DNA of 39,401 bases, taken from assembly GCA_046538345.1 (NCBI GenBank), contig JBKHJB010000001.1, forward strand, positions 1 to 39,401, in the 5' to 3' direction. The stretch comes from Phycisphaerae bacterium (GTDB taxonomy: Bacteria; Planctomycetota; Phycisphaerae; SM23-33). Positions 5,527 to 24,965 of this stretch are shown here, piece by piece (position 1 is the stretch's first letter; each line of letters starts with the position of its first letter). The position numbers were made by a program, and so were the translations under genes. A model generated the notes under the pieces. That model worked only from the letters and a program-made list of their open reading frames with translations, made no database searches and was not told the DNA's origin.

Positions 5527-5881
5527 GCAGGTGAGCGGCGTAGAATATGCGACGCAGGCGCTCGGCGGCTCGTCACAGGGATCATAAGCTCCCAAGGCCT
5601 TACATTTGATAAAGTTGGCACAACGGATTACCGATACCTCAAGCAGTCCTGACCCGTGTGGGACGTGACCGGACAGCCGTAAGTAGTTGGGTTTACAAAA
5701 CCGATGTTGTCGCGCGGCCTTGGGCCCGTTAGGGTGTAATTGCCGGATTTTGCTCGATCCGGAGGCGATGGTATTGTCTCCCACAGGGCTTAGCTCGTTT
5801 CGTTAACTGAGCCGAACCATTCCCGCATCCGCGGGGTAAGAGGCAAAGGTGTATTTGCTGTTGAGTAGGAAAGGCGACGTG

Positions 5882-7663: not shown

Positions 7664-7681
7664 GCCGCGGGTTGTGGGTGA

Positions 7682-8689
7682 ATGATGAATCGTTCGAATA
7701 ACGTCGCGTCAGCCAAAGCACAAACACCGAGTCGGCTTTCGGAAATGGTCACCACGGTGGAAACGCCTTCGGTGCTGGAGAGCTTTCCGCCGGTGACGCT
7801 GTTGAAGATGGGCTTGCTGGCGCTGCTGCTGGTGGTTCTGCATTGGAGCCGCCTGGTCGAGCTGGTGGGGGTCTGGTACAACGAGCCAAACTGGTCGCAC
7901 GGGTTTCTGATACCACTGTTCAGCGCATTTCTGATTTACAGTCGCCGTGACGAGGTGCTCTCGGCGCCGCGGAAGGTATGCCTGTGGGGCCTACCGTTGA
8001 TGATCGTCGCGCTGCTGATCGAGGCGGCGGCGATCTTTCCCATCCGCAACACCTGGATTTACTGGCTGGCGATGGTGTTGTTGGTCTTCTCCACGGTCCT
8101 GTATCTGGGCGGGACGCGAATTATCCGCGTTACGGCGCTTCCCATCCTTTACTTCGTGCTGGCGATTCCGATACCCAACCTGCTCTACGAGCGTATCGCT
8201 CTGCCTTTGCAGAATCTTGCGGCCCGCGCGTCGGCGCTGCTTCTGCGGGCGCTGGGCACCGAGATATCTGTCCGTGCGAGCCAGCTTGAGGTCATCAGCA
8301 CGGAAGGCAACTGGTACCCCCTGACGGTGGCCGAAGCGTGCAGCGGCGTACGCTCGCTGTTGGCGTACGTGGCATTGGGCGTCGCCTGGGCGTATCTGAC
8401 CGACAGGCCCATCTGGCAGCGCGTGGTGCTGGTTCTGGCGGCCGTGCCTATCGCCATAGTCACCAACATGGCAAGGGTTACCATCACCTGCGGGATGTAC
8501 GCCATCGACCGTCCCGAGCTTGGGACCAAGTTCATGCACGAATTCACGGGCATGCTGATGCTCGCCCCGGCGCTGCTGATGTTCTGGGGTCTGGCGAAAC
8601 TTCTCAGCAGCTTGTTCGTAGAAGTAGAAGACGAGGAGACCGAGCAATCGCAGGTCTCCGACGAAGCGGCCGACGGAGGAGGCGCATGA
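7682..8689 (+). CDS. Exosortase (EpsH/Xrt family transpeptidase)
   Basis: Polytopic membrane protein. It carries the exosortase-type motifs NWSHGFLIP, TVAEACSGVRSLLAY (Cys), NMARVTI (Arg) and FMHEFTGM (His). It sits between an exporter gene and an EpsI-like gene. Confidence 0.8.
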   Translation: MMNRSNNVASAKAQTPSRLSEMVTTVETPSVLESFPPVTLLKMGLLALLLVVLHWSRLVELVGVWYNEPNWSHGFLIPLFSAFLIYSRRDEVLSAPRKVCLWGLPLMIVALLIEAAAIFPIRNTWIYWLAMVLLVFSTVLYLGGTRIIRVTALPILYFVLAIPIPNLLYERIALPLQNLAARASALLLRALGTEISVRASQLEVISTEGNWYPLTVAEACSGVRSLLAYVALGVAWAYLTDRPIWQRVVLVLAAVPIAIVTNMARVTITCGMYAIDRPELGTKFMHEFTGMLMLAPALLMFWGLAKLLSSLFVEVEDEETEQSQVSDEAADGGGA

Positions 8690-9564
8690 GTGCGCCATCG
8701 CGACATCCCGGAGAGGTGAAGCGCGGCTGGATACATTTCGGCGTGGCCGCCGGTCTGCTGGTCCTTGCACTGGGAGGACTGGGTTTCGCCGTTACTTATC
8801 TGGAAGTGGCGCTCCAGAAGGAACCCGTGCCCTGGCCGGAAGATACGCGCGTCAGCGACGATTTCCGTCTGCGCGGGCTGCCTGAGCAGTTCGGGCCTTA
8901 CCGGATGTTGGATACCAACGGTGAGACCGTGCTGGAGGGCGATATTCTGGATTCTCTCGGTGTGGGCCGACCTATAGACGCTCGACGATTGCCCGATCGC
9001 ACCAGCAACTGGTACTTGATCCGTCGCTACGAGGACACGCGCAAGGACGAGTCCAGTCCCTACAAATACTGGCAGTTGGAGGCGTATTACTACACCGGCG
9101 AATACCGCACCGTCCCGCACGTGCCGGAGCGTTGCCTGCCGGCGGCCGGTGCCGAAGCCGTCGAGGGCCAGAGCGGCGCGGTTACATTCTCGCTACCGCC
9201 GCTGGACGAGGACCGGCCCCTGTGGGACACCGGCGAGCTGGTGTTCCAACGGGCGGCCTACGCCACTACGCGCGGGAGGATGCGGGAAGACCGCCTGATG
9301 ACGGTGTACTACATCTTCAGTATCAACGGCGAACCGGAGGACTCTTGGTTGCAGGTCCGCCGGCGGCTGGTTTGGCCGTTCGACAAGTATTGCTACTTCG
9401 CAAAGATTCAGTTCTCGCCGCTGGGTCCTGGAAAAATCGAGGACCTCGACGAAGCCGACCGTGCGGCCGAGGAGTTCATGAACCATGCCATGGAGCATGT
9501 TATCAAGCATTTCCCTTCCGTTAAGGACATGCGGGACCTGAGCGAGCAAGAATCATCGAGCTGA
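8686..9564 (+). CDS. EpsI-family (exosortase-associated, DUF3485-like) membrane-anchored protein
   Basis: The ATG at 8686 overlaps the exosortase TGA (ATGA). It gives MSAPSRHPGEVKRGWIHFGVAAGLLVLALGGLGF (TM), then LPEQFGPY... The position immediately after the exosortase is typical for EpsI. The ORF-track start at 8338 would overlap the exosortase by about 350 nt and was rejected. Confidence 0.6.
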   Translation: MSAPSRHPGEVKRGWIHFGVAAGLLVLALGGLGFAVTYLEVALQKEPVPWPEDTRVSDDFRLRGLPEQFGPYRMLDTNGETVLEGDILDSLGVGRPIDARRLPDRTSNWYLIRRYEDTRKDESSPYKYWQLEAYYYTGEYRTVPHVPERCLPAAGAEAVEGQSGAVTFSLPPLDEDRPLWDTGELVFQRAAYATTRGRMREDRLMTVYYIFSINGEPEDSWLQVRRRLVWPFDKYCYFAKIQFSPLGPGKIEDLDEADRAAEEFMNHAMEHVIKHFPSVKDMRDLSEQESSS

Positions 9565-9582
9565 TGAACCCAGAGATAGAAA

Positions 9583-12500
9583 ATGGCAAAGCGCAAGAAA
9601 CTAAATACACGTGTAGTTGTACTTCTGTCGGTTTTCGGCGTGCTGGTCCTGGCGCTGGGGGTTGCGGCCATCATCGGGCTGATGCCGCGCGATCCCGAGG
9701 CCTACTTTGATCGCGGCATGTCCGCCTTTGAGCAGGGCGACTATCAGAGTGGGTCGCGATTCCTCCAGGAGGCGATCGGTCAGGCGAAGAAGCAAGGCGC
9801 CGAGAAACCCAAGTATTATTACCAGCTTGCGCGCCTGCAGATGGAATGGGCGGAGAACGACGAGGACCTGACCCGGGCCCAGCAGGGGGAGTTGCTGGGT
9901 CGTAGCCGGGGGAACCTTGAAACGGCTCTGCGCGTCGATGAGTCCTATATGCCGGCTCACCGTATGCTGTACGACATGCGTTGGCAGCAAGCCAGGGCCA
10001 GTGGCGGAGCGGGCCGACACTGGGACCAATTCATCGAGCAGGTGAACCAGCTCATCGAACGCGAGCCGGACAACCACAAAGCGATATATCGGCGGGCGGT
10101 GGCCAAAAGCCGACAGACCGCCGTCAGAGGGGAATATTACGAGCAAGCGATCGAAGACTATCGCAAGGCGATCGAACTGAACGGTGAAGTTCCCCGGTAC
10201 TGGATGGATATGATCCGGCTTATGCTGGACAGGGGTCATCTCGTGGAGGCGGAGATGGCGTTTGACGAGGCCATCGAAGCCAACCCCGAAAGCTCTGAAA
10301 TTCGCAGCTTCTATTCAGAGTATCTCTCGCGACGCGGGCGCGAGGACGAAGCCATGGCGCAAATTCGCGAAGCCGTCGAGCGCAATCCCGACAGTGCCCA
10401 GCCGTTCCTGAGTCTGGCTTCACAGTATCGCAGAAGCGGTGACGTAGAGGCCGCGATGGACGCCCTCGAAAAGGCAAAGGAAGTCGAGCCGCAGTCATGG
10501 GACGCGAACATGGCCATGGCGCGACTGTACGACCAGAGGGGAGATGCAGAATCGGCGGTCGCTGAGATGCGCGAGGCGCTGGACAAGCTCGCCGCTGAGA
10601 TGGACCGCTTGAACGCGGAGGATTTGTCCATCGAAGAGCGCATGTCGGCGGAGCGCAGAATACGAAATAGCCGCCTCGAGCTGAACCGCGGGCTGGGCCT
10701 GCTGTTGGTTCGTTTGGCCCAGCGCTCGGACGACGAGCAGCAGTCGGATGAGTATCTCCGCCAGGCCGAGGAGCACCTTCAGATAATTCGTGAGATGCTC
10801 CCGGACAGCGCGTACGTTGCGGAGGTTGCCGGGCGTATCGCGGAGCAACGCGGTGATATCTCCGAAGCGATGAGTCAGCTTGAGAAGGCATACGAGCAAT
10901 ACGGTACGCGGAATCCGCGTCTGGCGATGGACCTGATGCAGCTTTACCGACGGCGTGATATGCCCGGAAAGGCCAAGGAGATAGTGGACAGACTCCTTAA
11001 GACTTCTCGGCTGAGCAACAACACCGGCCTGCTGCTGACCCAGGCACAACTGGAAATGCAGTTCCGGGAGTATGACAAGGCCGCCGATATCCTCCAAAGC
11101 GTACTACGTTCAGACCCGGAGAACGAGCAGGCGCGTAATCTCCTGTCACTGATTGAGACGATGCGGACCCCGGAGACGGCGACGCTTCCCGAAGGCACGG
11201 AGCCCAGTCGGGCTTTGGTCATGGCGATGCGTCAGCAGGCGTCGGCCGCCTGGGTTCGCGGAGACAAGCAGGAAGCGGTCAGGATTCTCGAGGACCTCCA
11301 CGAGCGGATTCCGGAAGACTGGGGGGTAAGCAGTCATTTGACGAGCGTTTACGTGGGTATGGACGAGACGGAAAAAGCCCGTCGGCTCCTGGAGGAGGCG
11401 AAGGAGTATCACCCTGATCGTCCCCAGGTTGACTATGCCTTGAAGATGCTCGAAGAGACCGATCCCGATAAACGGTTCGAGCTGGCGCTGGAATCCACGG
11501 CGGTCGAAGAAGACCCGGCCAGGCGGGAGTTGAGCAAGGCCGCCGTCTGCGCGGTGTTCGGCAAGAACGAGCAATACGCCGAGCATCTTATGAAGGCAAT
11601 GGAGCTGGATCCCGATTCTCCGGAAGTGGTGGGACGGGTTTTCCAGTACGCCCTGTCCCGGGAGGACTGGGAACTGGCAGAGCAGTGCGTAGCCGCGGCG
11701 GAGAAGGCCAACCTCGACGAGCTTGACGGCAAACTGTACCGAGCTCAGATGGCGGGTGTTCGAGGCCGTTACGAAGAGGTCATAGAGCTTCTGGAAGAAC
11801 CCCTCCAGGGGCGTCCCGATCTGAAGCGTGGCTGGGCCATGCTGGCGTCCGGCTATCTCCGTCAAGGGCGCCTCCAGGATGCCAGAGAGGCCTACCGGGA
11901 GATATGGAACATCGACCCCTCGTTCGCCCCGGCGGCAATAGGGATGGCCCGGGTGAGCGAGCAACTCGGCGACGAGGAAGAGCACCGCAGGTGGATCGAA
12001 CGGGCATACTCCCTGGCTCCGGACAATCCCTACGTCAGAAGTCGGTACCTGAACCTCCAGGAGGAATATGGCGATCCGCGGCAGGCCATCGCGCAGCGCG
12101 AGGAGATACTCCGGCGGGACCCGGAGGATATGAACAACATATACCGCCTGGCGGTTCTATACGAAAGGACCGGACAGATCGACAAAGCCGAGGAGATGCT
12201 TACCCGGAACGTCGAGCAGATGGACGAGGAGCTTGACCGTGCCGCGGTGATGGCGTCGTTCTTCGAGAGGACGCGACAACACTCTCGCACGGACGAGCTT
12301 ATGCGGGAGCTGCTCAACGAAGAGGACGATAAGGTTGGTGTATATCAGCTTTGGGGACGGCTTCTGGAGTCCCGTAACCCCTCCGGGGCCGAGCAGGTCT
12401 TCCAGCAGGCGATTCAGCACGATAGTGAGGATCCCCGCGGACACTGGTCTTTGGCGAACTTCTACGCCCAGAGAAATCGTCCGGAGCAGGCGTTGGAGCA

Positions 12501-14034
12501 TTTCCGCAAATGCGTCGAGCTGCAGCCGGAAAACGTGCGCTATCGTAAGGGGCTGATGGGCCAGCTCATCAACGCCGGGCACTACGACGAGGCGTCGGAT
12601 CTCCTGGCACAATACCGCCAGGACCACCCAGAAGACACCGAGGTGCTGGCGTACGAGGGTATCCTGGCATTGCGCCAGGGCGACGCGGACAAGGCCCGCG
12701 AATTGCTCGACGAAGCGGTGGATAAGAACCCGGGTAACCCCGAGCCGCTCAATTACCGCGCCCAGTTGAACATAGCCGAAGGTCGTCTGGAGAATGCGTC
12801 CGAGGATCTTGAACGTGTCAGGAATCTTTCCGACGGGCCTGAAATCGGTGTGCGCCTGGCCGACGTGCAGCTTCGCATGGGCGAGGAAAACTCCGCCGAA
12901 AGGACGCTTCGCGAGGTTCTGGAGAGATACCGCGGTTACTCCCCGGCCATAAACCGGCTGATTGCGATTTACCAGCAGGATCGACGCTGGAACACGCTTG
13001 AGGAATTTATTACGCAGCTCCGCCGGCGGTTTCCCGACGATCCGACATATCTGGTTCGGGAAGCGGAGATGTGGTCCGCTCGCGGCGCGCCCGACAGGGA
13101 AGTTGACGCGATGGAAAAAGCATATGAGCTGGCGCCTGATTCGACGCAGATAGTGGCGAGGTATGTGAACGCCCTTTTGAAGACCGAGCAATATCAACAG
13201 GTTCTGAAGGTCACCGAACAGCCGGTAGAAGACGGAGACCCACCGGCTTGGATACTGGCGGTGAGGGGCAGGGCCCAGGCCAAACTCGGAAACGCCGATG
13301 AGTCCGAGCGATCGTTCGCCCGGGCCATTGAGAAGGTCTCGTTGGAGCGCATGCGTACGGTCGGCTCGCAGATTCGCCTGGCCTATGATCGTAGTGAGGC
13401 GATTGAGAAGCTGCGGCAGTGGCGGGATCTGCGTCCTGACGACCCGCTGGTGTACATGCTGATATCCCAGCTCCATCAGGAAGGCAGGGAGCACGACCGC
13501 GCGGTCGATATGCTGCTCGAGGCCGAGCAACTCGCCGAGACCGAAGAGGAAATGGCGGAGATTAACAAGCTGCTCGGACCGTCCTACCAGGCACTGGGAG
13601 AAGCCGCTTCCGCTGAAAAGGCGTATCTGAAGTATCTGGAGTACCGGGGTGACGACCCCTATGTGCTTAACAACCTGGCCTATCTGTACGTGGACGTGCT
13701 GGAGGAGCCGGAGAAGGCCCTGCCTTACGCCGAGAAGGCGGCCCGGCAGCTTCCCGATAACGCAGCCGTGCTGGACACGTATGGCTGGGCGCTGTTCAAG
13801 ACCGGAAGGACCGACGAAGCCGAGCGTCAGCTCGTGCAGGCGGTACAGTTGGGGCAGTCGGCGGTGACCGTTCGATACCACCTCGGCGCCGTCTACGAGC
13901 AGAAGGGACGAAACCGCGACGCGCTTCGGCAGTATCGCCGAGCGTATGAGATGGTTCGAAACGACGAGAGCCACGAGCTTCATGCCGAGCTCAAGGAAGC
14001 CGTGGACCGAGTCGAAGATAAGCTCAGCGGATAG
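9583..14034 (+). CDS. Giant TPR-repeat protein (PrsT-like partner in exosortase EPS loci), N-terminal membrane anchor
   Basis: 1483 aa. N-terminal TM helix VVVLLSVFGVLVLALGVAAIIGL. TPR-like 34-aa periodicity throughout (A..Y..A...P....A...LA..Y...G). The C-terminus resembles TPR_lipo family members (VLDTYGWALFKTGRTDEA). Confidence 0.8.
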   Translation: MAKRKKLNTRVVVLLSVFGVLVLALGVAAIIGLMPRDPEAYFDRGMSAFEQGDYQSGSRFLQEAIGQAKKQGAEKPKYYYQLARLQMEWAENDEDLTRAQQGELLGRSRGNLETALRVDESYMPAHRMLYDMRWQQARASGGAGRHWDQFIEQVNQLIEREPDNHKAIYRRAVAKSRQTAVRGEYYEQAIEDYRKAIELNGEVPRYWMDMIRLMLDRGHLVEAEMAFDEAIEANPESSEIRSFYSEYLSRRGREDEAMAQIREAVERNPDSAQPFLSLASQYRRSGDVEAAMDALEKAKEVEPQSWDANMAMARLYDQRGDAESAVAEMREALDKLAAEMDRLNAEDLSIEERMSAERRIRNSRLELNRGLGLLLVRLAQRSDDEQQSDEYLRQAEEHLQIIREMLPDSAYVAEVAGRIAEQRGDISEAMSQLEKAYEQYGTRNPRLAMDLMQLYRRRDMPGKAKEIVDRLLKTSRLSNNTGLLLTQAQLEMQFREYDKAADILQSVLRSDPENEQARNLLSLIETMRTPETATLPEGTEPSRALVMAMRQQASAAWVRGDKQEAVRILEDLHERIPEDWGVSSHLTSVYVGMDETEKARRLLEEAKEYHPDRPQVDYALKMLEETDPDKRFELALESTAVEEDPARRELSKAAVCAVFGKNEQYAEHLMKAMELDPDSPEVVGRVFQYALSREDWELAEQCVAAAEKANLDELDGKLYRAQMAGVRGRYEEVIELLEEPLQGRPDLKRGWAMLASGYLRQGRLQDAREAYREIWNIDPSFAPAAIGMARVSEQLGDEEEHRRWIERAYSLAPDNPYVRSRYLNLQEEYGDPRQAIAQREEILRRDPEDMNNIYRLAVLYERTGQIDKAEEMLTRNVEQMDEELDRAAVMASFFERTRQHSRTDELMRELLNEEDDKVGVYQLWGRLLESRNPSGAEQVFQQAIQHDSEDPRGHWSLANFYAQRNRPEQALEHFRKCVELQPENVRYRKGLMGQLINAGHYDEASDLLAQYRQDHPEDTEVLAYEGILALRQGDADKARELLDEAVDKNPGNPEPLNYRAQLNIAEGRLENASEDLERVRNLSDGPEIGVRLADVQLRMGEENSAERTLREVLERYRGYSPAINRLIAIYQQDRRWNTLEEFITQLRRRFPDDPTYLVREAEMWSARGAPDREVDAMEKAYELAPDSTQIVARYVNALLKTEQYQQVLKVTEQPVEDGDPPAWILAVRGRAQAKLGNADESERSFARAIEKVSLERMRTVGSQIRLAYDRSEAIEKLRQWRDLRPDDPLVYMLISQLHQEGREHDRAVDMLLEAEQLAETEEEMAEINKLLGPSYQALGEAASAEKAYLKYLEYRGDDPYVLNNLAYLYVDVLEEPEKALPYAEKAARQLPDNAAVLDTYGWALFKTGRTDEAERQLVQAVQLGQSAVTVRYHLGAVYEQKGRNRDALRQYRRAYEMVRNDESHELHAELKEAVDRVEDKLSG

Positions 14035-14045
14035 GAGCTGAACAG

Positions 14046-16244
14046 ATGAGCCGTATCCCAACAAGAGATCAGGTTCCGCAGATATCGCGGGGACCGTCGC
14101 CTTCAGGCCCGCGCCCGCAACAGCCGGGTGCCGGTTCCGGTGGCGGATTCACCGGTCGCGACGCTCTGCGCGTGGTGCGGCAGCGGTGGTTGCTGATTCT
14201 GCTTTCGCTGCTGATTTGCTCCGGATTGGCGGCCGGGGGCACGGCTACGTGGCTGGCTTTCGCGCCGATGTACACAGCCACTGCCTATATAGAGGTCCTT
14301 CCGCCCAAGGGCAGTGAATTGACGGACAACCAGCGGCTATATAACGAGCAGATTATGGACCGTCTGGTGCAGGACGCCGCTGCGATCGTCAAGACCGAGC
14401 CGGTTCTGGAGGACGCTCTGGACGACCCTGAGGTCAGTCAGACCAGATGGTACCGCCAACGGAGCCCCGGCGACGTATTGGAAGACCTTTCCAAAGAAAT
14501 CGGGGTCGGGGCGGTTCCGAACACCAACTACATACGCGTATCGATGCGCGGGTTCAACAAAGCCGACCTGCCGGGCATTGTCAACGCCGTGAGCGAGGCG
14601 TTTGAGCGAGACACGCTTGAGCAGGTCGCTGGGACGCGACAGAAACAGATAGAACGCATGGGCCAGGAACGGGAGAACCTGGATTCCCAGCTTGAGAACG
14701 TTAACAGTCGCATCGAGAATACAATCAGCAACGCCCAGGTTTCCAACATCGGCGATCGCCGCAACACCCTTGCCGTCCGGATGGAAACCTACATCTCGCA
14801 GATGATCCAATTGGAGACGGAATTGGCTCAGGCCGAGGACTCCCTGGAAGCCATCCGCGAACAGGTCCAGCGGGACGAGCTGGCCAGCAACCCCCAGGTG
14901 GCTTACGCCATCCGGAACGACCCCAGCGTCCGCGCCATGCGCAACGCGCGTGTAAACATGTCCACGGAACTCCAGAACATGCTGCGGACCTACGGTCCGG
15001 ACCATCCGCGGGTCGCCGAGATGCGCTCCGCTCTGGAGGGCATGGAAGAACAGATACAACAGTTGGAGAACGAAATCGCGCGCGAGGAGGGCGAGGCGCT
15101 GGTGAACATGACCATGTCCGAGGTCAGCCAGTTGCGCGCCCAGTTGCTCAAGGTCCAGTCCAACTACAACGAAGCCGAGCGCAACATGCGCGACGTGCAG
15201 ACTCGCCTGACAGAGCTGGAGGAACTCCGCAACCGGCGTGATAACATTGAGCACAATATCGAGCGGCTTGACCAGGCGTTGGTGGAGTTGCGTTTGCTGG
15301 CATCAGGTGACTACCGGGTGCGCGTGCGGCGCCGGGCCACCGAGCCGCGCCGGCCCTCCATGCCTCAATGGCATATCATGATGCCGGTCGGAGTTCTGCT
15401 CGGACTGATTATCGGGTTCGGCGGGGCGTTTCTCCTGGAGTTCATCGACACTTCGGTCAAAAGCCCCACGGATATATCCCGCAGGGTGGAACTGCCAGTG
15501 CTCGGTATGGTCCCGCATATCGAGGACACCGAGGAAGAGTTGGAGGACATGCGTCTGGCGTTTCGTACGCATCCCAACTCGTTGGTTGACGAGGCATTCA
15601 GGCAGATACGCACGTGTCTGCTGTTCAGCGGACCGGCCAGTCAGCGACGCAGCTTGCTGGTGACCAGTCCGTTGCCCGGCGACGGACGGACCAGCGTGGC
15701 GCTGAATCTGGCCGCCTCCGTCGCCCGCGGTGGACGCCGCGTGCTGGTGGTGGACGCCAACTTCCGCCAGCCCGCCATCGGACAGTTATTCCCCGACGCT
15801 CCGGAGGAAGGGCTTAGCAGCGCTGTGGTGGGGCGGGCAAATTGGACCGATTGCGTCTATGAAGTGGAGGAAAACTTCCACGTAATGCCGGCCGGGCATA
15901 TGCCGCCCAACCCGGCCGAATTGCTCGGCTCCGACGAGATGCGCCAACTGCTCAGCGAAATGGAGAACCAGTACGACCAGGTCCTGCTGGACAGCGCCCC
16001 GTGCCTGGTGGTGACCGACCCTTGTGTGCTGGCGTCGCTGACCGACGGCGTGGTGCTGGTGGTCCGGGCGGGCAGCAACACCTACGGAATCGTGCAGCGT
16101 ACGCGTGACATGCTCTCGCGAGTGGGTGCCCGCACGCTGGGTGTCGCGCTTAACGGCGTCCGCGCGACCGCCGGCGGATACTTCCGAAGGAACTACGAGA
16201 CCTTCTACGAGTATCACCAGCCGCAGCAACTGCCGAAGTCATAG
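14046..16244 (+). CDS. Polysaccharide co-polymerase / BY-kinase (Wzc/GumC-like) with an atypical P-loop
   Basis: AGGAG SD 8 nt upstream. Wzz-like N-terminus with a TM helix, a long coiled coil and a second TM helix. CpsD/CapB-like ATPase domain: SPLPGDGRTSVALNLA (Walker A with R in place of K), VLVVDANFRQP (A'), VLLDSAP (B). Tyr-rich tail GGYFRRNYETFYEYH. Confidence 0.85.
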   Translation: MSRIPTRDQVPQISRGPSPSGPRPQQPGAGSGGGFTGRDALRVVRQRWLLILLSLLICSGLAAGGTATWLAFAPMYTATAYIEVLPPKGSELTDNQRLYNEQIMDRLVQDAAAIVKTEPVLEDALDDPEVSQTRWYRQRSPGDVLEDLSKEIGVGAVPNTNYIRVSMRGFNKADLPGIVNAVSEAFERDTLEQVAGTRQKQIERMGQERENLDSQLENVNSRIENTISNAQVSNIGDRRNTLAVRMETYISQMIQLETELAQAEDSLEAIREQVQRDELASNPQVAYAIRNDPSVRAMRNARVNMSTELQNMLRTYGPDHPRVAEMRSALEGMEEQIQQLENEIAREEGEALVNMTMSEVSQLRAQLLKVQSNYNEAERNMRDVQTRLTELEELRNRRDNIEHNIERLDQALVELRLLASGDYRVRVRRRATEPRRPSMPQWHIMMPVGVLLGLIIGFGGAFLLEFIDTSVKSPTDISRRVELPVLGMVPHIEDTEEELEDMRLAFRTHPNSLVDEAFRQIRTCLLFSGPASQRRSLLVTSPLPGDGRTSVALNLAASVARGGRRVLVVDANFRQPAIGQLFPDAPEEGLSSAVVGRANWTDCVYEVEENFHVMPAGHMPPNPAELLGSDEMRQLLSEMENQYDQVLLDSAPCLVVTDPCVLASLTDGVVLVVRAGSNTYGIVQRTRDMLSRVGARTLGVALNGVRATAGGYFRRNYETFYEYHQPQQLPKS

Positions 16245-17582: not shown

Positions 17583-17723
17583 TAACCTCCTTTTGCAGCG
17601 GGAGAAAGAGACCATTGCCTCCGCGCCGGACGGTTTCCCGGCATCATGGGCCCGATCGCTAAAATGCTTCCGGTTCGACGGGCGTTTGTTGTATCCTATG
17701 GCCACTGTTCTTATGCCCCCGGA

Positions 17724-19022
17724 ATGAGGATCATGGCTACGCGAACGACACGAAACGAACTTGATGGCAGGACTCTCTGGATACCCCCCATGACCTATGT
17801 GGGGGCGCGCCTGGCGGCGGCCGTGTTCCGCGGAATCGGCATCGACGCGCGGATTACTCCACCCTCCGACGAGCGCACGCTGGAGCTGGGTGGGCTTTAC
17901 AGCTCGGGCGAGGAATGCTACCCGCAGAAGGTCACCATCGGCGACTTCCTCCGCGTTATCCACTCCGAGGATTTCGACCCCGACAAGACGGCCTTCTTTA
18001 TGCCAATAGCCGAAGGCCCGTGCCGCTTCGGGCAGTATGCACCGTACTTCAAGCAGGTCCTCGGCGAGCTGGGACACGAGGATATCCCCGTCATCTCGCC
18101 TTCGAGCAAGAACAGCTACGACGAGATGGGCGAGCACGGCAGTGAGATGATCCGCACGCTGTGGCGCGGGCTGGTGGCGTCGGACATACTGCGCAAGATG
18201 CTGCTCAAGACCCGACCCTACGAGACCGAAAAGGGCGCCGCCGACAACGCCTTTGAGCGGAGCATAGAACTCATCGAGGAAGTTCTCGAGTCGCAGGGTC
18301 TTTCCAGTGGCGAGTTGATTGACCGGCTCGTGGATGCACTAATCCGCTCGCGTGAATTGTTCCGGGCGGTCCCGGCGCGATACACCAAGGACCGGCCGCT
18401 CATCGGCGTTGTGGGGGAGATATTCTGCCGGCTGAACACCTTCAGCAACTACGACGCCGTCCGCAAGATCGAAGCCCACGGCGGCGAGGCCTGGATGAGC
18501 GACGTTACCGAGTGGGTGTGGTACACAAACTGGTCCCAGCAGCACCTGCTGAAACGCGACGGGCGAACCATCTCACTGGAGATGCTCGGCGCCAAGATCA
18601 AAAACGCCGTCCAGCGCCGCGACGAGCATAAGCTGCTGGAACCGTTCGCCGAGGAGTTCGTCGGTTATGAGGAGCCGCACGACGTTTACGAGGATGTGCT
18701 CAAGCCCTCCTGGCCGTATCTGCCCGCCGACGGTGCGCTGGGCGAGATGGTCCTTTCGGTCGGAAAGAGCATCTATCTCTATGAGAAGGGCGTCGATGGG
18801 ATTATCGACATCAGCCCGTTCTCCTGCATGAACGGTATCGTCTCTGAGGCGGTGTACCACAGGGTCAGCGAGGACCACGATTCGCTGCCTATGCGCAATT
18901 TCTACTTCGATTCCACCACCAGCAACATGGAGCGCGACCTGGACATCTTCATGGAGTTGGCGCAGAGCTATCGCAAGCGAAAGCGCAAGCCACGGCGGTA
19001 TCCGGCTTACTTCGAAGACTAG
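17724..19022 (+). CDS. 2-hydroxyacyl-CoA dehydratase-related / CoA-enzyme-activase-associated protein (DUF2229/HGD-D-like)
   Basis: Motifs SSGEECYPQKVTIGDF, PCRFGQY, PLIGVVGEIFCRLNTFSN and IIDISPFSCMNG. These resemble the CYPAK.. / GEI(Y/F).R / F.C motifs of acyl-CoA dehydratase activase-related proteins, recalled from memory. The start is uncertain (17646, 17724 or 17733). Confidence 0.6.
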   Translation: MRIMATRTTRNELDGRTLWIPPMTYVGARLAAAVFRGIGIDARITPPSDERTLELGGLYSSGEECYPQKVTIGDFLRVIHSEDFDPDKTAFFMPIAEGPCRFGQYAPYFKQVLGELGHEDIPVISPSSKNSYDEMGEHGSEMIRTLWRGLVASDILRKMLLKTRPYETEKGAADNAFERSIELIEEVLESQGLSSGELIDRLVDALIRSRELFRAVPARYTKDRPLIGVVGEIFCRLNTFSNYDAVRKIEAHGGEAWMSDVTEWVWYTNWSQQHLLKRDGRTISLEMLGAKIKNAVQRRDEHKLLEPFAEEFVGYEEPHDVYEDVLKPSWPYLPADGALGEMVLSVGKSIYLYEKGVDGIIDISPFSCMNGIVSEAVYHRVSEDHDSLPMRNFYFDSTTSNMERDLDIFMELAQSYRKRKRKPRRYPAYFED

Positions 19023-19087: not shown

Positions 19088-20959
19088 ATGGGCGACTCTT
19101 CAGCAACCCCGGCGGCTTCCACGCAGACACGTCGAACCGCCGACCACCGGGAAACAAAACAGTCGGAGCTTGCGGCGCGGCGAAAGGCCGTGCGGCGTTT
19201 TACGCGGACTTTGCGCGACCTGCCGCACGAGACCCGCGCGACCTGTCCGACCTGTCGTGAAGTCGTACCCGCTGGGTTCGACCGTGCCGGCGACCGGATA
19301 GTACTGCATTACCACTGCCCTCGCTGCGGTGAACGCAGGGAAGCCCACCACGACCATATCTGGACGCCGACTGCCAGTGACGTGCCCGGCAGCGCCACGC
19401 AAACCTGCCTCGGCTCGCGCATTCGTCCTGTCCTGCGTCGCCTGCCGCGGACCGTCGAGTCGCTCTGCCCGCACTGCCACGCCCTTGTCATCGGACGGAT
19501 ATTCGTCGAGGACGGGGCGGTGTTCATGGAAAAGACCTGCCCGGAGCACGGTTATATCCGCGACTGCGTCAACAGCGACGCTCTGCTCTACGCCAAGAGC
19601 CAGTGGTGGAGCTTCGAGGAGCACCCGGGCCACCAGCGCCCTCACGTTACAGGCGGCGGGTGGTGTCCGTCGGATTGCGGGCTGTGCAATCAGCACCTTT
19701 CCAGCCCGTGCCTGGCGCAGATTGACGTGACCAACCGCTGCAACCTTCGCTGCCCTGTATGCTTCGCCAACGCCGCGGTCACCGGCAAGCTCCTGGAGCC
19801 GGACTATGGCGAGGTAGTCCGCCGCTTGCGGGTCTTGCGTGACCTTCGGCCGATACCAGCCACAGCCGTCCAGTTCACCGGCGGCGAGCCGACAATACAC
19901 CCGGATTTTCTCCGCATACTCGCCGCCGCCAGGGACATGGGCTTCAGCCACATACAGGCGGCGACCAACGGTATTCGTCTGGCCGACGCCGACTTCGCCG
20001 AAGCGGCGGCCGATGCCGGACTGCATACGCTGTACCTGCAGTTCGACGGCGTCGGCGCCGAGGCGCACCGCTACACGCGAGCGTGTCCGGGGCTGTGGGA
20101 GAAGAAACTCGCCACCATCGAAAACTGCCGCCGGACCGGCATGAAAGTCTGCCTCGTGCCGACCATCATCCGTGGCGTCAACGAACGGCAGGTGGGCGAG
20201 ATATTCCGCTTCGCCGTCGAAAATATCGATGTTGTCAGCGCCATCAGCTATCAGCCCGTCGCTTTCACCGGCCGTATCGACGATCAGCAGCGCGCCGAGC
20301 AGCGCTACACCCTCGGCGACCTGGCCCACGACATCGCCGACGCATCCGGCGCGGTTCCGTTGCGGGACATGTTCCCGCTGAGCATCGTCGCGCCGCTGGG
20401 GCAGTTCCTCGAGGCGATTACAGGCAACCCCAAGATCCGCCCCAGTTGCCATCCGGACTGCGCCTTCGGGACGTACTTTCTGGTTTCTGCCGAGGGCAGG
20501 GCGTACCCCTTCCCCGAAGTAGTGGACGTGGAGGGAATGTTCACGGACATGAACCGCTTCGCAAGGCGCATAAAAAGTCGAGGCCGCCTGGGCTGGTTTG
20601 ACAAGATCCGCGTACTGCGGATGTTCAAGCGGCACTTCAAGCCCGAGTCCGCACCGCCGGGACTGGACGTGAAGCGTTTTGTCCGAACTCTTCAGGGCCT
20701 GGTGGACAAAAAAGCCGGTCGGGGCGAGGGCGAAAAGCAGACCTACAAGACACTGCTTTGCGCCGGCATGCACTTTCAGGACCGATACAATTTCGACGTC
20801 GAGCGCGTAAAAAGATGCGTCATACTCTACTCCACCGAGGCCGGCGTCCTTCCGTTCTGCACGCATAACTGCGGGCCGGAGTATCGCACGGCCATCGAGT
20901 CGGACTTTGCCGACCCGGTGGGCAGCTACGAAGCCCGGATTACGGAGCCGAACGAATGA
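19088..20959 (+). CDS. Radical SAM enzyme, MJ0619/Tes (GDGT-MAS, class D-like) family candidate, with an extra N-terminal zinc ribbon
   Basis: Radical SAM motif CNLRCPVC (19739-19762), preceded by CPSDCGLCNQH..PC. N-terminal CPHC..(x22)..CPEHG ribbon plus an additional CPTC..CPRC ribbon. C-terminal MHFQDRYNFDVERVKRC..LPFCTHNC. This motif order matches my recollection of the MJ0619 family. Confidence 0.75.
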   Translation: MGDSSATPAASTQTRRTADHRETKQSELAARRKAVRRFTRTLRDLPHETRATCPTCREVVPAGFDRAGDRIVLHYHCPRCGERREAHHDHIWTPTASDVPGSATQTCLGSRIRPVLRRLPRTVESLCPHCHALVIGRIFVEDGAVFMEKTCPEHGYIRDCVNSDALLYAKSQWWSFEEHPGHQRPHVTGGGWCPSDCGLCNQHLSSPCLAQIDVTNRCNLRCPVCFANAAVTGKLLEPDYGEVVRRLRVLRDLRPIPATAVQFTGGEPTIHPDFLRILAAARDMGFSHIQAATNGIRLADADFAEAAADAGLHTLYLQFDGVGAEAHRYTRACPGLWEKKLATIENCRRTGMKVCLVPTIIRGVNERQVGEIFRFAVENIDVVSAISYQPVAFTGRIDDQQRAEQRYTLGDLAHDIADASGAVPLRDMFPLSIVAPLGQFLEAITGNPKIRPSCHPDCAFGTYFLVSAEGRAYPFPEVVDVEGMFTDMNRFARRIKSRGRLGWFDKIRVLRMFKRHFKPESAPPGLDVKRFVRTLQGLVDKKAGRGEGEKQTYKTLLCAGMHFQDRYNFDVERVKRCVILYSTEAGVLPFCTHNCGPEYRTAIESDFADPVGSYEARITEPNE

Positions 20960-21447
20960 GAAAACTTGCGACGTTGCTGATATGCGTTTTGGCGGGAGGC
21001 GCCTTGCTGTTCGGCTGTGCCGGGAATAATGGTGAGCTGGACGATCCCGAGGTGCCTCGCGTGACCGAGTCGGACAACCTGCGGCTGACCCTCGATGTCT
21101 CTGACCGCCAGGTCGCCGTTGGAGAGAAGTTGAAAGTGCGGCTGACCGCGCGGAATACCGGCTCGGAACCCATCAAGATCACCGCCCGCAGCGGAGCATT
21201 GATGCGCGTGCGTATCTGGCAGGAGACACCTATCGGCTGGACGACCGTCAAGCAGTATCCCGAGGCCGCCATCATGGTCATCACCCCTTGGACGCTGGAA
21301 GCAGGCCGGCAGCGGCAGTTTGATATGGGGCTTACGGTCGATAAGGACTGGCCCACGGCCGAGACCATCCGGCTGACGGCGGAGCTGAACGGCCGAAGTG
21401 ACGTAAGGGTCGGCGCCAAGATCGAAGTCGCCCCACGCGGCGGTTAA
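20956..21447 (+). CDS. Small secreted lipoprotein, beta-sandwich-like (possibly BsuPI/inhibitor-like fold)
   Basis: The ATG at 20956 overlaps the upstream TGA (ATGA), with GGAG 8 nt upstream. Signal peptide with lipobox MRKLATLLICVLAGGALLFGC. The alternating beta-strand pattern LKVRLTARNTGSEPIKI is the only basis for the fold guess. Confidence 0.55.
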   Translation: MRKLATLLICVLAGGALLFGCAGNNGELDDPEVPRVTESDNLRLTLDVSDRQVAVGEKLKVRLTARNTGSEPIKITARSGALMRVRIWQETPIGWTTVKQYPEAAIMVITPWTLEAGRQRQFDMGLTVDKDWPTAETIRLTAELNGRSDVRVGAKIEVAPRGG

Positions 21448-21450
21448 GGC

Positions 21451-23148
21451 ATGATAAGTCCATCCAGCGACAAACCAACCGGCGACCAATCGTACACCGC
21501 GGCCGGAAAACACACCACAGCCGCGCAGCTTGGCAAGAGCTACCAGCACGAGTTTCCACCGTCAAGCAACCCCCACAAAAGCCCCGACCGCGCCGAGGAC
21601 GGAGTGCTCAACAGCGGACGGTACGCGCGTGAAAGCTCCACTCTCGCCGACCGCATAACACCCTCGGCCGTGCGGATAGACTATCACCATCCGCTGGAAA
21701 ACTGGCTGGGGCACCCGGCGTTCCGTCGGCTGTTGCGAATGCTTTCTCGGGACGACGCCCGCGGGCTAACCGCTCTGGAGCGCATCATAACCAGCTACCG
21801 CAACGGCGATGCTCCGCTCGGCGAACGGCTGAAGTACTGGGCGTTCCACAAGCTCATCGACCGCTTGCGCGGCGATACCGACGTGGCGACTTTCCGTCGT
21901 CGTCTCGCCGAGCACGGGCCCACGGTTCGCGGGCTGGTCATCGTCGCCCGCAGCGTGGGCGAATTCGGCCTGACGGTCCCGCAGCGGTTCACTGCGCCGT
22001 TGTTTGCGGTGTGGAACTTCACCAACCGCTGCAACCTGTCGTGTCCCCACTGCTACCAGGACAGCGAACACACGGCGCTGGCCGGCGAGCTGTCGCTTTC
22101 CGAGAAGCTCGACGTGATCGACCAGATGGGCCGGGCACACATGCCGATGGTCGCTTTCAGCGGCGGCGAGCCGACGCTCAGCGAGGACCTTGTCCCCGCT
22201 ATCGAGCGTGCCCGGCGGTACGACATGCACGTCACCATCGCCACCAACGGCACGACGATGACCCGCGAGCGGGCACGGCGGCTCGCCGAGGCGGGGTTGA
22301 GATACGTCGAGATATCGCTGGATTCGGTCGATCCCGAAAGGCACGACCACTTCCGCGGCGTACCGGGCATGTGGCAGCGGGCGGTGCAGGGCGCGAAAAA
22401 CGTCGTCGCGACCGAAGGCCTGCGGCTGGGCATCGCGATGTGCGTCCACCGCGGCAACGTCGATGAGGTCGAGGAGATGATCGACTTCGCCGAGCGGCTC
22501 GGCGCCGGGTGCTTCGCGCACTTCAACTTCATACCGGTCGGCCGGGGGTTGAAAATGGTCTCCGGCGATATCACACCGCGGCAGCGCGAGCAACTGCTGG
22601 CGCTGCTTAACGAGAAGATGCAGCAAGGTGGCATTGGCATACTGTCCACCGCGCCGCAGCTCGGACGGGTCTGCCTCGCCGGCGCGGCTCTGGACACCGG
22701 GCTTACCACCTGCTCGCACGCCGGCAGCGGAAGCGGGGTAAAGGCGCGCGTGGTCGCCAAGTATCTCGGCGGATGCGGGGCCGGTCGAACCTATATCTGC
22801 ATCGAGCCGCATGGCGATGTCACTCCCTGCGTGTACCTGCCCCATCGAGTCATGGGCAACCTGCGCGACAGGCCGCTGATGGATATCTTCCGTCGCAGCG
22901 TGTTCTGGGACATCCTCAACGACCGCAACCGGCGACTGCATCATTGCGAGGTATGCGCGTTCAAGAACTACTGCGGCGGCTGTCGGGCGCGGGCGGATGC
23001 CTATTTCGGACAACTCCACGCCGGCGACCCCGGTTGCGTGTTCAACAGTAAACACTGGGACCGCCTGGTCGCCGACGGCGTGGCGGTACTCGGCGAGGCC
23101 GGCGAAGTCCCGGCCGAGTCCACAGTGTTGCGCCACGGTCCAGCGTAA
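21451..23148 (+). CDS. Radical SAM/SPASM-domain enzyme, NirJ/AhbC/AhbD-like, with a ~190-aa N-terminal extension
   Basis: CNLSCPHC (22030-22053), GGEPTL, and a C-terminal Cys-rich SPASM-like region (CGAGRTYICIEPHGDVTPC...CEVCAFKNYCGGCRARA). It starts 3 nt after the preceding stop. The true start inside the low-complexity N-terminus is uncertain. Confidence 0.8.
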   Translation: MISPSSDKPTGDQSYTAAGKHTTAAQLGKSYQHEFPPSSNPHKSPDRAEDGVLNSGRYARESSTLADRITPSAVRIDYHHPLENWLGHPAFRRLLRMLSRDDARGLTALERIITSYRNGDAPLGERLKYWAFHKLIDRLRGDTDVATFRRRLAEHGPTVRGLVIVARSVGEFGLTVPQRFTAPLFAVWNFTNRCNLSCPHCYQDSEHTALAGELSLSEKLDVIDQMGRAHMPMVAFSGGEPTLSEDLVPAIERARRYDMHVTIATNGTTMTRERARRLAEAGLRYVEISLDSVDPERHDHFRGVPGMWQRAVQGAKNVVATEGLRLGIAMCVHRGNVDEVEEMIDFAERLGAGCFAHFNFIPVGRGLKMVSGDITPRQREQLLALLNEKMQQGGIGILSTAPQLGRVCLAGAALDTGLTTCSHAGSGSGVKARVVAKYLGGCGAGRTYICIEPHGDVTPCVYLPHRVMGNLRDRPLMDIFRRSVFWDILNDRNRRLHHCEVCAFKNYCGGCRARADAYFGQLHAGDPGCVFNSKHWDRLVADGVAVLGEAGEVPAESTVLRHGPA

Positions 23149-23810: not shown

Positions 23811-24965
23811 CTATGCATGCTCCCGCTCCCACTCTTTCTCGTCCCCGGTGAAAAGCCGCACCCTGCGCTTGGCGTATTCGTCGCGTGTCCACAGTTCAAC
23901 GCGGTTGGTGAGTCCGGTGGTCGCGACAAGCTCGTCTATCGTCATTCGGCAGTCCTGTTCGTCGCGGCCGTGAATCATGGTATAGAGATTATAGGGCCAA
24001 TCGGGTGCGGTTTCCCGCAGCATGCAGTGGCTCACGCGGTCGCAGTCTGCCAGGCGGGCGCCGGCCGTGTCCGCGTCGCCGGCGCGCCAGGCGACCATGA
24101 CGTTGGTCCGCGCGCCGGCGGAGCGATGCCGCAGGACCGCGGCGTAACGGCGCATCCGGCGTCCTTCCAGCAGCTCGCGGGCAATTGTGAGCAGTTCGTC
24201 CACACTCAGCCCTTCATCGGCGGCCAGTGCGTCGAAGGGCTTTGCCTCGGCGGGCAGGTCGCGCTGCAGGGCGCGGATCGCCAGTCGCTGTCTTTCGGTC
24301 GGTTCAATGGGTGTTGCGGGCGGATCGGTCGATGCGGGCTTGGATATCCGTCCCGGCCGGTGGGGATCGAAACGCACGGCCAGCTTGTACCTGTCAAGAG
24401 CGGGCAGCACCATGTGCCGCTCGGCCGATGTAAGCTCGGCCAGGCGTTTCGCTGTTGCCTCCAGGCCAAGTCGGCTGTGCGGGCTTACCGCCAATGTCAG
24501 CCAGAGGTTATATTCCGCAACGCCCGCGGGCTTTCTGAGATGCCGGGAATAGCAGTGCGAGACGCCGGGGTGTGTCGCCACGAGCCGCCCGGCCGAGTCG
24601 AGCGCGTCTTGCTCAACGCTCAGCGCCACCAACGCCTGACGGTAACCCAGTGCGGCGGCGTCGAAGATGCCCGATATCTCGCGGATAACCCCTCGCCCGT
24701 CTCGCAGGTCAGCAGTTTGCCGGAGCACTTCGTTTTCATTGCGCCCGAGTTGTTCGGCGATCGCCCGAAACGGATGAGCGACAAGGGGAACTGCGCTTTG
24801 GAGTTGCTCCAGCAGGCGGGTGTCGAGGTCGCTGTCGGTCACTTCACTGGTCTGGGCCTGGGCGCCGGCGTCGCGAACCGCAGCACGTCGTCGGCGCCCC
24901 GGGCCTTTATATGTCCCACAGCTCAGGCCCGCGCCGCAACGCCTTGGGCCTGGAGAAAATCTCAT
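23811..24965 (-). CDS. Fused NirD/NirL (AhbA/AhbB)-type siroheme decarboxylase-like protein (two Lrp/AsnC-like modules)
   Basis: Two tandem modules. Module 1: LDTRLLEQLQSAVPLVAHPFRAIAEQLG..EVL....GVIREISGIFD..ALGY...LVA..V....HPGVSHCYSR...YNLWLTL. Module 2: the same pattern, with RVSHCMLRE and YNLYTMIH. The ATG at 24965 overlaps the upstream gene by 59 nt. An alternative GTG at 24842 would remove the overlap. Confidence 0.7.
   Translation of the reverse strand: MRFSPGPRRCGAGLSCGTYKGPGRRRRAAVRDAGAQAQTSEVTDSDLDTRLLEQLQSAVPLVAHPFRAIAEQLGRNENEVLRQTADLRDGRGVIREISGIFDAAALGYRQALVALSVEQDALDSAGRLVATHPGVSHCYSRHLRKPAGVAEYNLWLTLAVSPHSRLGLEATAKRLAELTSAERHMVLPALDRYKLAVRFDPHRPGRISKPASTDPPATPIEPTERQRLAIRALQRDLPAEAKPFDALAADEGLSVDELLTIARELLEGRRMRRYAAVLRHRSAGARTNVMVAWRAGDADTAGARLADCDRVSHCMLRETAPDWPYNLYTMIHGRDEQDCRMTIDELVATTGLTNRVELWTRDEYAKRRVRLFTGDEKEWEREHA

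Follow-up and report, generated by a model that had tools for sequence, protein, structure and literature searches.

A duplicated N-terminal ribbon in a tetraether synthase homologue from Phycisphaerae

We analysed a 39,401-nucleotide stretch of DNA, here called the window, comprising positions 1 to 39,401 of the forward strand of contig JBKHJB010000001.1 from a Phycisphaerae bacterium (GenBank assembly GCA_046538345.1), and focused on an open reading frame (ORF) that encodes a radical S-adenosylmethionine (SAM) enzyme of the tetraether synthase family (Tes, or GDGT-MAS; GDGT, glycerol dialkyl glycerol tetraether). The protein is almost certainly a Tes in which the N-terminal ribbon is duplicated, the extra copy being specific to one clade and under selection. 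The reading that we favour, and hold to be somewhat better than an even proposition, is that of a Tes orthologue whose additional ribbon would most plausibly be an electron-entry station. The taxon, the Tes family and the pairing of tes with gms are already known, and the double ribbon leaves the known chemistry of the family unchanged. A literature search, within the papers available to it, turned up no account of a bacterial Tes with a second ribbon or rubredoxin, and the duplicated ribbon is apparently an undescribed variant of a known enzyme.

The enzyme and its two ribbons

A preliminary description of the window had called the ORF a Tes-like radical SAM enzyme, and three comparisons place it in the Tes family. 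The protein scored 484.9 bits against the NCBIfam Tes equivalog NF045702, above the cut-off of 450, with residues 123–610 covering profile positions 2–485 of 486. The best solved structure was that of Methanocaldococcus jannaschii GDGT-MAS (7TOL/7TOM), residues 119–614 aligning with positions 21–511 of the 7TOL chain (E 4e-109). An AlphaFold2 model calculated from an alignment of 120 homologues (mean predicted local distance difference test, pLDDT, 89.2; predicted template modelling score, pTM, 0.90) matched 7TOM in Foldseek with a target-normalised template modelling (TM) score of 0.93 and a root-mean-square deviation of 2.2 Å.

The M. jannaschii enzyme has four metal sites, namely a rubredoxin-like Fe site, [Fe4S4]N (bound by C73/C77/C80 and a His), the radical SAM (RS) cluster and [Fe4S4]C (PMC9433317, PMC13459092). 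The [Fe4S4]N ligands of the ORF are invariant, at the sequence level, in 120 of 120 homologues, as are C458, C558, C577, C591 and M561 of its C-terminal domain; M561 aligns with Met439, the labile ligand of the M. jannaschii [Fe4S4]C, a correspondence that we counted by hand on the 7TOL alignment with a chain offset of 20. The preliminary description had singled out the auxiliary-cluster motif abutting the SAM cluster, which is no novelty, being the [Fe4S4]N Cys3His site already described for M. jannaschii Tes (PMC9433317, PMC13459092). Judged from its sequence, the ORF is the Phycisphaerae orthologue of Tes/GDGT-MAS, with every cofactor ligand of the M. jannaschii enzyme kept. It is predicted to hold three [4Fe-4S] clusters, namely the RS cluster, an N-terminal one bound by Cys3His and a C-terminal one that has a Met ligand, besides a rubredoxin-like Fe on the surface (Cys3His); the tail-to-tail Csp3–Csp3 coupling of lipids that characterizes the family is its putative reaction.

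The canonical rubredoxin-like domain is the second of two ribbons in the Phycisphaerae protein (Table 1). The Pfam family PF23545 (Zn_ribbon_HMPTM) matches the protein twice, and the extra module, ribbon 1, when searched alone, scores 37.1 bits against a gathering threshold of 27, residues 46–85 aligning with profile positions 2–41 of 45. A genome search with the profile put a PF23545 match at exactly the nucleotides of ribbon 1. Its ligands, C53-x2-C56-x20-C77-x2-C80 (CPTC at nucleotides 19244–19255 and CPRC at 19316–19327), have the same spacing as those of ribbon 2, C127-x2-C130-x20-C151-x2-H154 (CPHC from nucleotide 19466, and CPEHG, containing C151 and H154, at 19538–19552), with Cys in place of the ribbon-2 His; the ribbon-2 spacing in turn equals that of the M. 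jannaschii site, C9x2C12x20C33x2H36, which binds Fe in the crystal structure (PMC9433317). The two CxxC...CxxC/H modules, CPSDCGLCNQH and CNLRCPVC noted in the preliminary description are thus all present, its positions for CPRC (19327) and CPEHG (19552) being those of the motif ends.

When profiles of the two ribbons were built from the 120 homologues and compared with each other, 42 columns aligned in register (hhalign E 9e-6), and both ribbons are preceded by the pattern LP..T...CPxC. In the AlphaFold2 model they form the same predicted four-strand unit, with strands at residues 47–52, 59–67, 70–77 and 81–88 in ribbon 1 (pLDDT 93–98) and at 121–126, 133–141, 144–151 and 155–162 in ribbon 2. 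C53, C56, C77 and C80 are kept in 120, 120, 120 and 119 of the 120 homologues respectively, on a par with the catalytic ligands. More distant members of the clade within the window's class also keep the four Cys residues, for example as CLGC...CPQC, CVQC...CPKC and CCGC...CNSC. A match to the classical rubredoxin family PF00301 was rejected (E 0.25; 11.9 bits against a cut-off of 23, over residues 74–85 only). Ribbon 1 is rubredoxin-like in its predicted ligand geometry, and lies outside PF00301.

The preliminary description had also proposed a basic leader of about 50 residues. Its second part stands, as a conserved helix over residues 27–45 that is basic and amphipathic (hydrophobic moment 0.5–0.7; predicted helices at 27–36 and 39–42, pLDDT 73–93) and includes RRKAVRRFTRTLR at residues 31–43. 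The remaining ~26 residues are unconstrained and probably disordered, pLDDT being below 50 over residues 1–23. Column conservation is 0.42 over residues 1–45 and rises to 0.75 in the linker that joins the two ribbons (residues 86–119; pLDDT 92–95). The last ~15 linker residues are shared with single-ribbon relatives, and alignments with P0122–P0124, the nearest of these, start at query residues 105–106. An RRF motif in the leader recalls a twin-arginine (Tat) signal peptide, an interpretation that we discarded: RRFTRTLRDLPHETRAT is without a hydrophobic h-region, and in the model this stretch is a predicted helix that packs ahead of ribbon 1.

The ratio of non-synonymous to synonymous substitution (dN/dS), computed against the nearest orthologue (L001), was ~1.1 for codons 1–26, 0.09 for residues 27–45, 0.095 for ribbon 1, 0.073 for ribbon 2 and 0.066 for the core. 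We conclude from the low dN/dS and the kept Cys residues that ribbon 1 is translated and under purifying selection. Codons 1–26 evolve neutrally; no other ATG lies ahead of ribbon 1, and the annotated one is an uncertain start. That translation begins further downstream, leaving ribbon 1 untranslated, is suggested by an in-frame GTG at codon 99 (V99) and by the neutrality of codons 1–26, yet it is scarcely credible given a dN/dS of ~0.09–0.10 across codons 27–85, invariant Cys at fixed spacing in the 120 homologues and in 80 genomic loci, a score above the PF23545 cut-off and a confidently predicted fold.

Table 1. Positions in the window of the double-ribbon Tes, its parts and the adjoining genes
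Feature	Nucleotides	Strand	Details
Tes/GDGT-MAS-family radical SAM ORF with two N-terminal ribbons	19088–20959	+	623 residues
Variable, probably disordered N-terminus	19088–19165	+	Residues 1–26; exact start codon uncertain
Conserved basic helix	19166–19222	+	Residues 27–45; consensus L...R..[MV]RRFA..Y..LP
Ribbon 1, extra PF23545 module	19223–19342	+	Residues 46–85; Cys4 (C53, C56, C77, C80)
Conserved linker	19343–19444	+	Residues 86–119; HHDxIWT..SDxPGSA..T..GSRIRP..RLPRTVE
Ribbon 2, canonical Tes rubredoxin-like domain	19445–19570	+	Residues 120–161; Cys3His; best PF23545 stretch
[Fe4S4]N ligand motif CPSDCGLCNQH	19664–19696	+	C193/C197/C200/H203; aligned with M. jannaschii CPYDCGLCPNH
Radical SAM core	19727–20215	+	PF04055, residues 214–376, E 4e-24
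RS cluster motif CNLRCPVC	19739–19762	+	C218/C222/C225 (CX3CX2C)
C-terminal auxiliary-cluster and lipid-pocket domain	20447–20872	+	C458, C558, C577, C591, M561; from 7TOL alignment
Stand-alone homologue of the C-terminal ~430-residue PlsA/Ger-type module, upstream	17646–19022	+	In 72/80 loci
Small downstream ORF	20956–21447	+	Follows Tes in 57/80 loci
Radical SAM/SPASM enzyme with 180-residue N-terminal extension	21451–23148	+	PF04055 and PF13186

Distribution and origin of the double ribbon

The 120 closest proteins are 64–86% identical to the query and 592–657 residues long, those with names coming from Phycisphaerae or Planctomycetota metagenome-assembled genomes (MAGs). Ribbon 1 occurs at the fixed spacing in 101 of the 102 close relatives that could be anchored by regular expression, the exception being P0031, with Gly for the fourth Cys, and the full alignment places it in 120 of 120. 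For the family as a whole we used an exhaustive HMMER scan of 1.84 billion cluster representatives, from which 150 diverse members (50%-identity clusters) were listed. About 140 of these have a single CxxC...CxxH module near the N-terminus, and two ribbons were found only in the query's own clade, represented by P0121 (55% identical), the fragments P0125, P0155, P0230 and P0235, the degenerate P0137 and P0258, and the frameshifted P0266. The suggestion that archaeal Tes has only one ribbon was therefore borne out (PMC9433317), and extends to nearly all other members of the family among the 150 listed.

In a tree whose sequences were assigned by eye to the one-ribbon or two-ribbon class, and whose root was not inferred, the double-ribbon sequences form one branch (Shimodaira–Hasegawa-like approximate likelihood ratio support, SH-aLRT, 100) beside the single-ribbon P0122, P0123 and P0124, in which the short stretch leading into ribbon 2 is already present. 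As the remainder of the tree covers the entire family, one gain of ribbon 1 appears to be the parsimonious reading.

Whole-genome searches with the N-terminal module (residues 27–118) gave a consistent picture. In the GTDB family to which the window belongs (f1), 33 of 36 genomes have the module, as do five of seven in another family of its order (f88); it is also present in families f90, f92, f94 and f95 of the same class, and was not found in families f2–f5, f89, f91, f93, f96 and f97 of that class, represented mostly by near-complete genomes. A further 200 genomes from the phylum sample, nine of them from the window's class, gave no strong match to the module, and 52 of these 200 contain a PF23545 ribbon. 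A scan of species-representative genomes yielded 324 related loci. Among the best 80, all of which are from MAGs with no cultured member among them, the match reaches back to query residue 45 or further in 77; the remaining three have matches that start at residue 62, 85 or 116, where the contig ends or comes within a few bases of its end. Ribbon 1 is thus retained across six or more GTDB families and 80 or more species, and is lineage-specific, as the preliminary description had supposed, being confined to part of one bacterial class. It lies inside the protein and not upstream of the start, and among the family members sampled it is absent outside the clade and so not universal.

That two ribbons are general to Tes, the archaeal reference having merely been trimmed, is next to impossible. 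We found no support for it, although precomputed Pfam strings list PF23545 once per protein and may hide duplicates; against it stand the single module of ~140 of the 150 listed representatives, the start of M. jannaschii Tes eight residues ahead of its first Cys, and the lack of a strong module match in those 200 further genomes from the phylum.

We propose a tandem duplication of the ribbon unit (LP..T...CPxC-x20-Cxx[CH]G) in the ancestor of a single clade of the window's class, after which the new, outermost unit turned into a site with Cys ligands only, with the basic helix ahead of it and a conserved, well-packed linker joining it to the old N-terminus. We count in favour of duplication the second knuckle of ribbon 1 in P0125, which reads EKTCPEHG as in ribbon 2 and may be a relic of that event.

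Several observations made during these searches concern ribbons elsewhere. Some other Planctomycetota genomes, for example G162 and G101, have 8–11 PF23545 matches each. Three of those in G162 lie in a tandem array of radical SAM paralogues, each with one Cys4 ribbon (CNKC...CPKCG); these single-ribbon paralogues are a separate, expanded subfamily. Two PF23545 matches 150 nucleotides apart in the same genome (G162:C103, L090) had the appearance of an independent double ribbon, and proved to be a repeated segment, in another frame, of a single-ribbon paralogue array. Within the double-ribbon group, L089 (G235:C10) has a low-complexity insert of ~55 residues inside ribbon 2. A double-ribbon Tes is also carried by L080 (G254:C175, JAACET010000031.1), a record labelled 'Actinomycetota bacterium'; if L080 is a contig of G254, as we infer, this NCBI label is probably wrong, G254 being placed in the window's class by genome kinship.

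Possible roles of ribbon 1

Ribbon 1 very probably binds a metal, either Fe or Zn, and the protein would then have five metal centres and not four. For its function we favour a place as the outermost station of a putative surface relay, ribbon to ribbon to [Fe4S4]N, that would bring reducing equivalents to the enzyme; put differently, ribbon 1 would be a landing pad for a bacterial electron donor, and the extra ribbon would adapt an archaeal-type enzyme to a bacterial context. The argument is that the parent domain binds Fe and lies on the surface of M. jannaschii Tes together with the [Fe4S4]N domain (PMC9433317), and that the RS cluster needs repeated one-electron reductions for each coupling, which makes an outer electron-entry station the likeliest role. 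We take as a further redox hint that an archaeal tes homologue neighbours a ferredoxin gene (PMC13459092), whereas profile annotation of the window genes detected none in the cassette to which the Phycisphaerae tes belongs. Taken as a claim in its own right, a redox or electron-entry role, as opposed to a purely structural one, is tentative, and we would place it a little short of even.

Almost equally likely, and to our minds a serious possibility, is that ribbon 1 serves solely as a structural Zn module without any part in electron transfer, one that steadies the N-terminus or docks Tes to a partner encoded in the cassette or, with helix 27–45, to the membrane. Several observations weigh against an electron-entry station, and some of them also favour a structural ribbon. 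A Cys4 ligand set is typical of structural Zn, which is what such ribbons more often hold, and the Pfam family is itself classed as a zinc ribbon. In one locus, L082 (G250:C77), ribbon 1 reads CPKDG and has lost its fourth Cys. P0137 and P0258, both inside the double-ribbon clade, retain the two ribbons and lack the [Fe4S4]N and CxxxCxxC radical SAM motifs, and with them RS chemistry; these two could be paralogues without catalytic function, or else artefacts of assembly, and they hint that the ribbons may have a role independent of catalysis. Column conservation is lower in ribbon 1 (0.69) than in ribbon 2 (0.85), tandem duplication is not strictly separable from fusion with a paralogous ribbon, and, according to PMC11868695, no bacterial Tes has been assayed for metal content, redox behaviour or activity. 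The basic and amphipathic character of helix 27–45 would suit a dock, as would the tight conservation of the partner genes alongside tes.

Two points tell against the structural and docking alternative. The parent domain binds Fe, as noted above for the M. jannaschii crystal structure, and ribbon 1 is present in families f92, f94 and f95, where we found no stand-alone gene for the PlsA/Ger-type module that lies upstream of tes in the window; docking of that protein therefore cannot by itself account for ribbon 1.

A functionless relic of duplication, drifting towards loss, is very improbable. Conservation slightly below that of ribbon 2 and the occasional loss of a ligand, in L082 and P0031, are in its favour; purifying selection as strong as on the core, retention across the families and species enumerated above and a highly conserved linker argue the other way.

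The gene cassette and known systems

The Tes gene belongs to a conserved four-gene lipid cassette, whose products are the homologue of the PlsA/Ger C-terminal module, Tes itself, a putative lipoprotein and a radical SAM/SPASM enzyme that is probably Gms-like. The first of these genes has no Pfam or NCBIfam match. Its product is 32% identical (E 5e-68) to residues 991–1417 of a 1431-residue protein from another genome of the phylum, whose two BcrAD_BadFG ATPase domains, DUF2229 and C-terminal HGD-D make up a PlsA/Ger-type set. Because the matching N-terminal part is found in the window's genome as a separate frame on contig C91 (G000:C91:3-3179, L091; 1059 residues with two BcrAD_BadFG domains and DUF2229, ending in a stop), the PlsA/Ger homologue appears to have been split and its C-terminal piece relocated beside tes. 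Homologues of the upstream gene align only from about residue 25–37, and it may start downstream of 17646. The small ORF that follows tes has no Pfam or NCBIfam family; read by eye, its N-terminus is a putative lipoprotein signal peptide with a lipobox-like LFGC.

A radical SAM/SPASM gene with the specific 180-residue extension adjoins tes in 68 of the 80 related loci, and we regard it as probably a Gms-like partner, a candidacy based on this context and on reported tes–gms clusters: gms homologues of Planctomycetes cluster with tes according to Garcia et al. (2024; PMC11214058), and Tes homologues of Phycisphaerae are recorded in a study of Black Sea MAGs (PMC11868695). Membership of a heme d1 or alternative-heme (NirJ/Ahb) module was rejected for this enzyme, as an AhbA/B-like ORF (23811–24965, minus strand) is near tes in only 11 of the 80 loci. 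Upstream of the cassette, nucleotides 5849–16244 hold an exosortase/extracellular polysaccharide locus (a Wza-like exporter, the exosortase EpsH, a tyrosine kinase of the Wzc-like kind and a 1483-residue tetratricopeptide repeat protein), which accompanies the cassette in just nine of the 80 related loci.

A stronger proposal, which we consider unlikely, is that a redox-active, rubredoxin-type fifth centre, as an integral module for electron entry or docking, couples Tes physically to the split PlsA/Ger C-terminal module and the Gms-like cross-linker. If true, uncultured Phycisphaerae would possess a dedicated machine for ether-linked membrane-spanning lipids of the branched GDGT (brGDGT) or branched glycerol monoalkyl glycerol tetraether (brGMGT) type, and the double ribbon would be a sequence marker of that group of lipid sources. 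The question of which bacteria and enzymes make brGDGTs underlies widely used palaeoclimate proxies, and Phycisphaerae Tes homologues are among the candidate brGDGT synthases. The duplicated ribbon is an easily scored marker of a large and environmentally widespread Tes clade (at least 80 species-level genomes) and a natural variant with which to probe the role of the enigmatic surface rubredoxin domain of Tes; the predicted fifth metal site is testable by metal analysis and spectroscopy, and the cassette provides a concrete set of genes for co-expression.

Of the systems already described, M. jannaschii Tes (MJ0619) is the closest in structure, sharing 37% identity over ~500 residues besides the TM score given above, together with the RS motif, the Cys3His site of [Fe4S4]N, the Met equivalent of [Fe4S4]C and the Cys3His ribbon with its x2/x20/x2 spacing. 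The Phycisphaerae protein differs from it in ~104 extra N-terminal residues, which comprise the disordered tip, the basic helix, the additional Cys4 ribbon and the conserved linker, and in its bacterial host, the substrate presumably being a bacterial membrane lipid and not archaeol. Single-ribbon bacterial Tes, for example from Acidobacteria and other Planctomycetota, belong to the same family and are candidate synthases of brGDGTs or other membrane-spanning lipids (Zeng et al., 2022; PMC8941075). The nearest of them, P0122–P0124 (44–50% identity), share the tail T..G..I.P....LP.T ahead of ribbon 2; in contrast to the Phycisphaerae protein, single-ribbon bacterial Tes have neither ribbon 1 nor the basic helix, and the initial portion of the linker is also missing from them.

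The reported tes–gms clusters of Planctomycetes and of Black Sea Phycisphaerae MAGs come from the same taxa, and here too Tes is followed by a radical SAM/SPASM gene; the accessible portions of the two papers (PMC11214058, PMC11868695) make no mention of a duplicated ribbon, of a stand-alone gene for the PlsA/Ger C-terminal module or of a small lipoprotein gene. The radical SAM paralogues in the G162 and G101 arrays likewise place an N-terminal PF23545 Cys4 ribbon (CNKC...CPKCG) ahead of a radical SAM core, but each protein has just that one ribbon, and the subfamily is a different one.

A parallel for the tandem arrangement is AlkG of the Pseudomonas alkane hydroxylase system, a free-standing carrier in which two rubredoxin CxxC...CxxC modules, joined by a linker, deliver electrons to an alkane-modifying enzyme. 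The two systems have in common tandem rubredoxin-type modules connected by a linker; AlkG is a PF00301 carrier, whereas the modules described here are of the PF23545 type and are fused to the enzyme itself.

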